From: an uncultured Candidatus Saccharibacteria bacterium
GTDB taxonomy: Bacteria > Patescibacteriota > UBA1384 > VFKW01
NCBI GenBank assembly: GCA_964482785.1
Contig: CAYZYR010000001.1
Location: 1-61,105 of the forward strand
DNA length: 61,105 nucleotides
Direction: 5' to 3'
Each line of letters opens with the position of its first letter. The first letter of the stretch is position 1. Under the pieces are notes generated by a model, which saw nothing but the letters and a program-made list of their open reading frames with translations, had not been told where the DNA came from and did not search any database. Positions 4,138 through 10,804 of this stretch are shown here, in pieces. The translations under genes were made by a program, and so were the position numbers.

Positions 4138-4168
4138 AAAAAGTCCGAACTCAATGTTCGGACTTTTT
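4138..4168. terminator. bidirectional hairpin terminator downstream of tRNA-Asn
   Basis: AAAAAGTCCGAAC-TCAAT-GTTCGGACTTTTT: a perfect 13-bp stem flanked by A and T runs. Confidence 0.6.
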
Positions 4169-4263
4169 GATTAACAGGTTAGAAACGATTGACGCGTGTC
4201 GGTCTTTGACACGATCAGAACTCTGCTCCGCGAGTAGGACTCGAACCTACAACCTAGTGGTTA

Positions 4264-4772
4264 CACTTAATCCAACTATTACTAGTGGCGTGGACTATCT
4301 CTTCGCCATATCCGTTTACGGGTTTAGGCGCTAGGCGCTTAGTCTCTGAACCTTCCCATAAAATGGGCTTGGCTGCGGATTACCCTTTGTCTGCCATCCA
4401 TTAGGGCTTCCCGTCAATTCACCTAGTTTTCACTCCGACGTTTCCATCGAAGGCTGCATAGAGTGTATTTCTCGGTGGCAATTCGAACAGAGTAAAACGC
4501 ATTTATCTAATTCTGTTTTAGCACTTTCTCAAGATCTGGTATATCCTTTTAAAGAAATACCGAAATCTTTACCAGATAAATAATGGAAATCAAGCGCTTC
4601 CATACATTTATTATAGCCACAGATGTTACACTTACCGCCTTTGTACTTGATAGCATTTTCTTTCAAGATTTTTTGTCTTGTTTTCACTGCTTTTATTAAA
4701 TACTCTCGGCAGTCGGCATATTTTCTTTGATCAATACTCATATAATAATTATATCAGATTGATAAATTCTCT
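4264..4772 (-). ncRNA. group I (IC3-like, tRNA-type) self-splicing intron carrying an HNH ORF
   Basis: - The 5' exon ends in U, which can pair with the guide GCAGCC (rc 4452-4457).
- AAUCCGCAGCCAAGCC is present (rc 4366-4381).
- UCAGAGACUA is present (rc 4340-4349).
- AAACGGAUAUGG is present.
- The terminal residue is G (rc 4264). Confidence 0.8.
4430..4741 (-). pseudogene. intron-encoded HNH homing endonuclease with an in-frame TGA
   Basis: The ORF 4529-4741 ends ...CNICGYNKCMEALDFHYLSGKDFGISLKGYTRS-TGA. The same frame continues ESAKTELDKCVLLCSNCHREIHS..., which completes the HNH motif, to the stop at 4430-4432. Confidence 0.7.
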
Positions 4773-4956
4773 ACAGCCACCCGCTCTACCATTGAGCTAT
4801 CGCGGAATATATATTGTTAAGTTTCCGCCACCCCATCAACTTCTGTGGCGGGCACGGAATAAAAAAGTACCTTTTCAAAGTGCATCAATATTTTAACATC
4901 TAACCAGTTGTCTGTAAAGATGTTTTACTGTGCAATGGCTACGATTGGGGACCGCT

Positions 4957-5817
4957 ATGAATTCATCAGAAGCAAGAGCAATTATTTCAAAACCAAACAA
5001 TTTGGAAAATTTTAAGCAATCGATAAAAAAAGACAGCCTAAATTCTCTCTACATCCTCGCCGACTTCGACCGGACTTTAACCAGAGCCTATTTTGAGGAC
5101 GAATTTATCCCTTCTGTCATTTCAATTTTAAGAAACGGCGGCTTCTTAACTCAAAAATATGCCGACCAAGCCCACGCCCTTTTTAATAAATATCACCCCA
5201 TTGGAATTGATCCCAAAATCCCCGAGTCGGACAAAAAACAAGCTATGTATGAATGGTGGATCACCCATTTCGACCTCCTCATCGACTCCAGTTTAAATAA
5301 AAAAGATATCGTCGAAGTGATAAAATCAAGTAAAATCCAGCTTCGCTATGGTGCCCAAACATTCTTCCAATTCCTCCACACTAAAAATATCCCCCTCATC
5401 ATCCTTTCTTCCGCCACACTCGGCACCGAATCAATCGGTCTCTTTTTAGAAAAAGAAGGTGTCTTAACCAATAATATTCATATTATCTCCAACTCTTTTG
5501 AATGGGATGATAATGGCTTCGCCGAACAAATCCGTGAACCGATCATCCACACTCTAAACAAAAACTAAATTCATCTCGAAGAAATGCCTTTCTATGATCA
5601 AATATCTACTCGTCGTAATGTCTTGTTAGTCGGAGATAGATTATCAGACAACAAAATGATCGAGGGGCAAGATCATAATAATATTTTAAAAATCAGTTTC
5701 TACAATGAAAAAACACCAACTCGTCTAAATGACTATCAAGAAATTTTTGATGTCGTCATAACAGGCGACGGTCCGCTCGATTTTTTAAATAACTTGCTCC
5801 AAGAATTCGATAAATAA
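4957..5817 (+). pseudogene. eukaryote-type pyrimidine 5'-nucleotidase (UMPH-1/NT5C3-like HAD) with an in-frame TAA
   Basis: - Motif I is ADFDRTLT and motif IV is LLVGDRLSD.
- The two track ORFs (4930-5568 and 5584-5817) are in the same frame, separated by TAA 5566-5568.
- The stretch across the stop aligns without a gap to my recollection of NT5C3 (IHVFNKHDG...NIILLGD). Confidence 0.7.
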
Positions 5818-10661: not shown

Positions 10662-10734
10662 GGGCGTGTAGCTCAGCGGTTAGAGCGCTTCTCTTATAAG
10701 GAAGATGTCGATGGTTCAAATCCATCCACGCCCA
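10662..10734 (+). tRNA. tRNA-Ile(UAU)
   Basis: GGGCGTG TA GCTC AGCGGTTA GAGC G CTTCT CTTATAA GGAAG ATGTC GATGG TTCAAAT CCATC CACGCCC A. CCA is not encoded. A hairpin ATTTGCC-TCTTGC-GGCAAAT lies downstream. Confidence 0.85.
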
Positions 10735-10804
10735 CACAAATTTGCCTCTTGCGGCAAATAATCCCCACATTGACGAGTGTTCATAGCTGGCTTAGTGTGG
10801 AAGT

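Follow-up and report, generated by a model that had tools for sequence, protein, structure and literature searches.

How does a cell obtain its tRNA-Asn from a gene that is interrupted within the anticodon, and what has become of the reading frame inside the interruption? Both questions are raised by positions 4226–4806, minus strand, of a 61,105-nt contig (CAYZYR010000001.1) from an uncultured Candidatus Saccharibacteria bacterium; we refer to this whole stretch of DNA as the window. An initial annotation had read the locus as a tRNA-Asn(GUU) gene split by a group I intron with an open reading frame (ORF). Our analyses make it very probable that the gene is a tRNA-Asn(GUU) into which a self-splicing group I intron, a member of the published Asn.4Ug class, has inserted between U35 and U36.

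A tRNA-Asn gene split within its anticodon

In its default mode, ARAGORN found four tRNA genes in the window and none at 4226–4806. With introns allowed, it reported a tRNA-Asn(gtt) with a 509-nt intron at exactly this place. Both exon sequences, when re-read, were as the initial annotation had quoted them, and the insert between them indeed measures 509 nt. Exon 1 (4773–4806) contains the acceptor 5′ strand, the D arm, the 5′ anticodon stem and C32–U35, and ends in ...GGCUGU. It is followed on the same minus strand by the group I intron (4264–4772), which extends from A+1 to the terminal G (omega-G) at 4264, and by exon 2 (4226–4263) with U36–A38, the 3′ anticodon stem, the variable loop, the T arm, the acceptor 3′ strand and G73; CCA is not encoded. 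ARAGORN run on the ligated exons returned tRNA-Asn(gtt), in support of the proposed cloverleaf after intron removal. The ligated tRNA has 72 nt, an anticodon loop CUGUUAA and an exon–exon junction that reads ...GAGCGGGTGGCTGT-TAACCACTAGG.... Its best annotated full-length matches are all tRNA-Asn, with 82–85% identity.

The splice junction could be compared with uninterrupted orthologues. At the syntenic locus, beside SLOG and beta-CASP genes, the relatives L125 (GCA_030647355.1), L127, L128 (GCA_040961635.1) and L129 carry an uninterrupted tRNA-Asn(GTT), which reads ...CCUGUUAAG.... Since L129 is the same organism's sequence as L128, these four loci correspond to three distinct ones. Together with ARAGORN, they place the insertion point between nt 35 and 36, as had been proposed, and they confirm the junction at which the intron ends with G. 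The intron is present at the same locus in the window, in L002 and in L126, with intact ORFs in the latter two. Identity of the neighbouring beta-CASP proteins among these locus-sharing relatives is 57–71%. We hence observe a presence/absence polymorphism at a single site, consistent with homing or with precise loss.

Further relatives were gathered in two ways, as homologs of the intron ORF and by scanning GTDB genomes, one for each species, for a DNA pattern. Among the 124 pattern-matching loci listed, 104 reconstruct as an exon 1 ending in ...CUGU, an intron ending in ...GUG and an exon 2 starting with UAA..., and the same split tRNA-Asn gene was confirmed in at least 101 species-representative genomes. 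A U1:A72 pair combined with discriminator G73 was found in 91 of the 104 intron-family members among the matches listed; the remaining 13 apparently reflect one-base offsets in the gene start set by ARAGORN.

Ribozyme core and covariation

The group I assignment was confirmed by a covariance search with Rfam RF00028 (Intron_gpI). It matches 4272–4566 on the minus strand with 85.3 bits (E = 2.5e-20, gathering score 50) over the full length of the model (positions 1–253), and is the only non-tRNA Rfam match within the window. Intron relatives score 77–87 bits with this model. The sequence motifs reported earlier, GCAGCC (4452–4457), AAUCCGCAGCCAAGCC (4366–4381) and UCAGAGACUA (4340–4349), are found at these positions, and a third one, AAACGGAUAUGG, is present inside P8. 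A pattern composed of two core motifs and the 3′ junction matched once in the window and not at all in 100 shuffles.

The internal guide GCAGCC (4452–4457, minus strand) pairs with GGCUGU of exon 1 to form P1, with a U35·G wobble at the 5′ splice site, as initially suggested. In the window, A+1 of the intron additionally pairs with the U immediately 5′ of the guide. In alignment A1, which comprises 72 non-redundant ribozyme parts that begin at the guide and end with omega-G, GCAG-C of the guide is invariant; the guide lies directly 5′ of P2 and pairs with C32–U35. The pair beside the wobble, formed by intron +1 and guide −1, covaries. It is paired in 64 of 83 members, with all four Watson–Crick types plus G:U (A:U 24, G:C 18, C:G 17, U:A 3, G:U 2). 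Two other ways of locating P1 were rejected. An exact 6-mer complement between guide and exon occurred in only 40 of the 104 members listed; this test is too rigid, as P1 is frequently extended on the intron side rather than deeper into the exon. An unconstrained search for the best P1 over the intron gave a mean of 7.9 bp versus 7.3 bp for shuffled sequences, and chose G·U-rich pseudo-helices inside the ORF.

The P2–P9 structure was drawn by hand on the window and then projected onto alignment A1. On the minus strand, the guide is followed by the P2 hairpin with a GAAA tetraloop (4434–4451) and by P3, in which 4420–4426 pairs with 4331–4337; this segment (4331–4426) encloses P4, P5, P6, P6a and the P7 5′ strand (4340–4346). 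P8 (4304–4330) and the P7 3′ strand (4292–4297, UAGUCC) occupy 4292–4330, and the last part (4264–4288) would form the P9 hairpin (4272–4288) with a GUAA loop and the tail AUUAAGUG to omega-G. The window forms standard pairs at all 49 modelled core positions and keeps 31 of 31 family-invariant nucleotides; because of both, its ribozyme looks intact.

Across the 72 sequences, standard pairs fill 87.7% of the cells in the proposed structure, compared to 71.4% after shuffling and 33–45% in slid registers. Double-sided changes amount to 712, versus 241 in the shuffled control and 99–197 in slid registers. Compensatory changes are found in P2, P3, P4/P5, P6, P6a and P8. Every P2 pair shows double-sided changes with 91% of the cells paired, and in P8 all four pairs covary (98.9% paired); the respective values for P3, the merged P4/P5 helix, P6 and P6a are 96%, 83.6%, 96% and 94%. 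Some relatives feature an extra hairpin between P7 and P3′. The GAAA loop of P2, a tetraloop-receptor-like CCUAAA...UAUGG motif in P8, the absence of P5abc and the short P9 are, as read from the sequence, consistent with subgroup IC3. We take the P2 loop and the P8 motif to resemble the Azoarcus-type tertiary contact between L2 and P8.

A decayed reading frame in the P1 loop

The initial annotation included an ORF located between 5′ splice site and guide. Its position holds, whereas the idea of a working gene does not, as comparison with 119 homologs shows it to be an HNH homing-endonuclease pseudogene in the P1 loop (4430–4741, minus strand). The open part has 70 codons (4532–4741) and stops at an in-frame TGA (4529–4531); beyond it, the remnant frame runs on through guide and P2 until it closes with another TGA, in J2/3. 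Homologs of the intron ORF number 662, many of them from Patescibacteria, and the intact relatives P0001 and P0004 match the PHROG 2255 HNH endonuclease with E = 2e-29 and 9e-24, respectively. The in-frame TGA replaces W71, which is Trp in 118 of the 119 homologs. At the HNH histidine, likewise His in 118 of 119, the window has Tyr (H54Y, codon 4580–4582), and R11C and R23Q alter arginines that are invariant in all 119. When restored, the window ORF is 83% identical to P0001 and scores 13.2 bits, below the Pfam HNH threshold of 21.4. In the closest relative, L002 (83% identical), TGG is found at the codon of the window TGA. A PDB sequence search with the HNH protein gave only a marginal match to the McrA motif (E = 0.018).

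From these changes, the window ORF is a decayed HNH homing-endonuclease gene, with the endonuclease gene decaying while the ribozyme is kept. The homing cycle predicts endonuclease decay ahead of ribozyme decay, and ORFs that extend from a peripheral loop into the core are an accepted layout (PMC3984707).

A TGNTATAAT extended −10-like motif (TGATATAAT) is located about 7 nt before the HNH start codon, at 4712–4725 (minus strand) in the window and at 2984–2994 in L002. No obvious Shine–Dalgarno sequence precedes the HNH start in either of them. The motif may be an internal promoter that gives rise to a leaderless mRNA.

Alternative readings of the locus

The splice junction, with ...GGCU-GU in front of the intron A...AAG-UG and UAACC behind it, permits two registers, both with U at −1 and G at omega. 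One yields the loop CUGUUAA (Asn, GUU), the other CUUGUAA (Thr, UGU). The gene could thus be a tRNA-Thr(UGU), spliced two nt upstream after U33, with an intron ending in ...AAG, and ARAGORN in fact called Thr(tgt) at 56 and Asn at 47 of the 124 pattern-matching loci listed. In the Thr register, however, U33 pairs with the A of the guide and the U·G wobble is lost, and the tRNA body with its U1:A72 pair and G73 finds its best annotated matches among tRNA-Asn genes. The Asn register is settled by these matches, by U1:A72 and G73, by the guide-set U35·G wobble and, decisively, by the uninterrupted orthologous genes at the same locus, which read CUGUUAA and refute the Thr(UGU) reading; its probability is practically nil. 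Highly improbable, too, is a recoding of the in-frame TGA as Trp, which would leave the HNH protein intact and the intron mobile. It would explain that the TGA falls exactly at the Trp position of 118 of the 119 homologs, and TGA is reassigned in some reduced-genome bacteria. Yet LepA, FtsH, DnaK and RecG of the window are full length under genetic code 11 with TGG for Trp, 3 of 24 long ORFs end in TGA with further stops within a few codons, and the neighbouring UMPH-1 gene is broken by TAA, not TGA. From this it follows that the TGA is a genuine stop. The TGG of L002 at this codon speaks against recoding as well, and H54Y, R11C and R23Q also hit invariant positions of the ORF.

A further reading is that of a dead locus, in which the intron has ceased to splice. 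The tRNA-Asn copy of the window would then be a pseudogene, and the cell would rely on a second, intact tRNA-Asn gene at another place in the genome. The decay of the endonuclease gene would agree with it, as would the in-frame TAA in the neighbouring UMPH-1. Moreover, the Logan contigs L001 and L003, which were assembled independently from the window's own run (SRR8925826) and are identical to the window, break in exon 1 (at 4778 and 4802), which fits with a further copy of the exon sequence in the sample; they overlap by 25 nt, and the assembly graph seems to branch there. However, both exons are canonical and without defects, the ribozyme has kept its 49 core pairs and 31 invariant nucleotides, and the 61-kb contig holds no second tRNA-Asn. 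Complete CPR (candidate phyla radiation) genomes have also been reported to need intron-containing tRNAs for a full set (PMC8172020), which makes it plausible that the window gene is the sole copy in its genome, and loss of the endonuclease before the ribozyme is just what the homing cycle predicts (PMC3984707). We hence consider a dead locus unlikely and favor an intact tRNA-Asn gene with a self-splicing Asn.4Ug intron.

Several observations nevertheless weigh against this favored assignment. The invariance of P7 was fixed by the search pattern (CAGAGACUA, AUAGUCC) and has no independent support, and the 3′ junction, with ...GUG before and UAA after the splice site, was likewise set by the pattern used to collect the family. 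P9 scores poorly, the alignment being out of register around its loop. The contig breaks in exon 1 may hint at a second exon copy or at a related strain in the sample, and the UMPH-1 stop may mean that this stretch of the window is under relaxed selection or contains assembly errors. The ARAGORN search that found no other tRNA-Asn covered the one 61-kb contig. Finally, we infer the splicing of the window intron itself from its sequence.

Proposed splicing mechanism

From standard group I chemistry, the following course of events can be envisaged. The tRNA-Asn gene and the intron would be transcribed into one precursor, in which the guide GCAGCC, 315 nt into the intron, would pair with GGCUGU of exon 1 and so place the U35·G wobble of P1 at the cleavage site. 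After folding of the P3–P9 core, an external guanosine bound in P7 would attack the 5′ splice site. The terminal G (4264) would then occupy the guanosine site, and the freed 3′-OH of U35 would attack the 3′ splice site. Ligation would yield a normal 72-nt tRNA with the anticodon loop CUGUUAA.

The P1 loop of about 310 nt contains the remains of a former HNH homing-endonuclease gene. Intact HNH proteins of the relatives presumably cut intronless tRNA-Asn genes and thereby spread the intron; we infer this target specificity, as we do the essentiality of splicing, which presupposes that the window gene is the only tRNA-Asn gene of the genome. Because the window HNH gene has a nonsense codon and has lost the catalytic His and two invariant Arg, the window intron would be an immobile passenger, which may persist because it still splices.

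The intron family and its endonucleases

Members of the Asn intron family occur in at least nine bacterial lineages, as labelled, and on one contig that resembles a huge phage. Lineage counts, with labels taken from record titles, are lower bounds and not a representative sample. Saccharibacteria account for at least 21 genomes with at least 7 long, i.e., ORF-size, introns, and other Patescibacteria for at least 16 genomes with at least 5. At least 15 genomes are cyanobacterial. Chloroflexota follow with at least 11 genomes (at least 5 long introns), records labelled Gammaproteobacteria with at least 8 (at least 1), Omnitrophota with at least 7 (at least 3) and Acidobacteriota with at least 5 (at least 3); at least 13 genomes are unclassified (at least 3 long introns). 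Deltaproteobacteria and Planctomycetota are represented by at least 2 genomes each and Peregrinibacteria by at least 1. In these three lineages and in Cyanobacteria, there are no long introns among the matches listed.

Intron lengths are bimodal among the matches listed, with 74 members of 190–352 nt and 30 members of 497–675 nt. The part from guide to omega-G has about 220 nt in short and long introns alike, whereas the median distance from the 5′ splice site to the guide is 13 nt in short and 326 nt in long ones. As this accounts for the entire length difference, the extra sequence sits in the P1 loop. Among the matches listed, about 22 of the 30 long introns contain an intact ORF of 100–120 aa, which starts 20–45 nt past the splice site, runs through guide and P2 and ends in or beyond J2/3; the guide is usually read as xxG-CAG-Cxx (Gln-Pro/Leu). 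ORF decay similar to that in the window is found in L043, L051, L084 and L103, and L054 has a frameshift.

Other members carry their endonuclease differently. In the Saccharibacteria loci L068 (DIRZ01000002.1) and L076 (CAZVUR010000041.1), the intron is ORF-less and a free-standing HNH homolog, encoded on the same strand, ends 51–54 nt before exon 1. A metagenome-assembled genome (MAG) of Limnocylindria (L113, JBGPKU010000087.1) combines an ORF-less intron with a double-HNH ORF 73 nt downstream. A similar layout is found on an IMG/VR viral contig of 436 kb (L130, IMGVR_UViG_3300032782_000001), where 36 tRNA genes are crowded into 15 kb. At 1926–2861 of this contig, a tRNA-Asn is split by a 227-nt ORF-less family member (RF00028, 76.6 bits). 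Directly downstream lies a gene for a free-standing 180-aa HNH homolog (2242–2784; 53% identity over 87 aa, E = 3e-30), and after it a second, uninterrupted tRNA-Asn (2787–2861). According to a 2014 review, phage introns had until then been seen only in protein-coding genes (PMC3984707). In a rough neighbour-joining tree, the free-standing HNH proteins cluster together, with about 60% similarity to the intron-borne ones. Finally, a 675-nt Asn intron of Acidobacteriota (L059, JANNYB010000148.1) has a 137-aa LAGLIDADG ORF in place of HNH (Pfam LAGLIDADG_3, 24.4 bits versus a threshold of 22.5).

We may speculate, although with considerable doubt, that the Asn.4Ug family shows, for a single target site, how a mobile group I intron arises and dies, with every stage preserved in living genomes. 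These stages would be ORF-less introns, ORF-less introns with an adjacent free-standing HNH gene (Saccharibacteria, Limnocylindria, the viral contig), an HNH gene captured in the P1 loop and read through guide and P2, so that translation would preclude P1 formation and vice versa, its replacement by LAGLIDADG (L059) and, eventually, decay as in the window. If so, the viral copy would represent a phage-encoded tRNA gene interrupted by a group I intron, and could be a vehicle for transfer between phyla. With the window, the known class gains one CPR example of the stage in which the endonuclease has decayed and the ribozyme is retained. The window is by itself of modest interest, and the series of endonuclease arrangements in the family is the part worth following. 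A family with free-standing, intron-embedded, replaced and decayed endonucleases at one site offers a natural test system for the assembly of mobile introns, and in cultured cyanobacteria whose intron is ORF-less (Oscillatoria sp. PCC 10802, Microseira wollei NIES-4236), splicing is open to direct tests. There is also a consequence for annotation. Standard tRNA finders miss the split gene, and the genome would look as if it were without tRNA-Asn; intron-aware ARAGORN mislabels more than half of the relatives listed as Thr or Asp.

Eight Bacteroidales/Rikenellaceae loci (L023, L024, L063, L070, L099, L104, L115, L116) also matched the intron pattern. Their exon 2 starts with UAAAAGCAAGAG and has a long variable arm, and ARAGORN wrongly assigns them to Phe, Lys or Gln. 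More probably, these loci represent tRNA-Leu(UAA) genes split after U33, the Leu.2Ug type of Williams. On four short IMG/VR contigs (L131–L134), the core pattern was matched and the 3′ flank is not a tRNA; presumably, group I introns here interrupt protein-coding genes of phages.

Host and genomic surroundings

The window, a complete NCBI contig of 61,105 bp, belongs to a CPR bacterium. It encodes FtsH, MurJ, LepA, RecG and DnaK, and its LepA is 77–80% identical to MAG proteins and about 60% identical to proteins of Patescibacteria and Berkelbacteria. A phage origin of the window was considered and rejected, as matches to Lak megaphages span only part of the HNH ORF and the window has the five proteins just named.

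About 58 nt downstream of the tRNA, at 4138–4168 on the minus strand, a hairpin (AAAAAGTCCGAAC-ATTGA-GTTCGGACTTTTT) is followed by a T-run, which reads as a probable intrinsic terminator; a consensus terminator scan did not list this hairpin. A promoter scan around the tRNA-Asn gene gave no more matches than chance predicts.

On the plus strand, the UMPH-1 (pyrimidine 5′-nucleotidase) gene at 4930–5817 has an in-frame TAA at 5566–5568, and its orthologue in L002 is intact (303 aa). Unless the break is due to a sequence error, two pseudogenes thus lie within 1 kb of each other. At 10662–10735 (plus strand), the window encodes a tRNA-Ile with the rare UAU anticodon, whose position is conserved in all close relatives (L125–L129). 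This suggests that the present CPR clade reads AUA codons without the lysidine-modified CAU tRNA that normally serves this purpose.

Comparison with known systems

The initial annotation did not recognise Asn(GUU) as a host for group I introns. This claim has to be withdrawn, as the Asn.4Ug class is already contained in Williams 2020 (bioRxiv 10.1101/2020.01.27.920355), and our search added at least 101 further examples. That work expands the four classical types of bacterial tRNA introns to 21, and its seed alignment includes Pam37.Asn.4Ug, i.e., Asn, split after the fourth loop nt, with U at −1 and G at omega. The window intron shares with Pam37.Asn.4Ug the host tRNA, the insertion after the fourth anticodon-loop nt and both splice-site nucleotides, as well as the guide, the landmarks GGGUGAAUU, CAGAGACUA, AGCGCC and GAGAUAGUCCAC and the ...AAGUG 3′ end. 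In contrast, Pam37.Asn.4Ug is a 272-nt ORF-less cyanobacterial intron, whereas the window intron has 509 nt, belongs to a CPR bacterium and carries the HNH pseudogene in its P1 loop. The seed is 93–96% identical to L018 and L007 (Floridaenema) and to L077 and L010 (Phormidium), with 96% for L018. Local alignment of the window ribozyme to 12 Williams seeds gave scores of 54–82 without a clear winner; homology between window and seed is established indirectly, via the family alignment to which both L018 and the window belong. The window intron is thus a new example of a known, widespread class, and neither host nor site is new. In mainly non-subscription literature, we found no paper on the HNH gene of the Asn.4Ug class, its P1-loop position or its overlap with the guide. 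The family-level picture of ORF-less introns, free-standing HNH, P1-loop HNH and decayed introns may be new.

Another Williams seed, Pgr210.Thr.2Ug, has a P1 (CUGUC with GGCAG) identical to that of Wba81.Asp.4Ug, with a U·G wobble after CUGU. The Thr.2Ug type may hence reflect the same register ambiguity and be an Asp.4Ug intron.

Like the IC3 introns of Azoarcus tRNA-Ile(CAU) and cyanobacterial tRNA-Leu(UAA), the window intron is a compact P1–P9 ribozyme in an anticodon loop. Common features are GAAA on P2, a receptor-like P8 motif, a short P9 and the core sequences ...CCAAG... and ...AGAGACUA...AUAGUCC. The host tRNAs differ, and so do the insertion sites, 35/36 in the window versus 34/35 for Leu.3Ug and 36/37 for Ile2.5Ug in Williams' numbering. 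Unlike the window intron, these classical introns are without an ORF. The tRNA-fMet intron of Synechocystis, which encodes I-Ssp6803I (Bonocora & Shub 2001, as cited under ref. 105 in PMC3984707), occupies another host tRNA and another insertion site than the window intron. In contrast to that intron, the endonuclease gene of the window has decayed. I-Ssp6803I belongs to the PD-(D/E)XK family, as opposed to the HNH family of the Asn intron.

An intron with a nearby free-standing endonuclease has been proposed as the precursor layout of composite mobile introns (PMC3984707). The layouts in L068, L076, L113 and L130 are like those described for collaborative homing and endonuclease invasion (PMC3984707, section 12). 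This likeness is a feature of the relatives and not of the window, and cutting of the tRNA-Asn site by their free-standing enzymes is putative.

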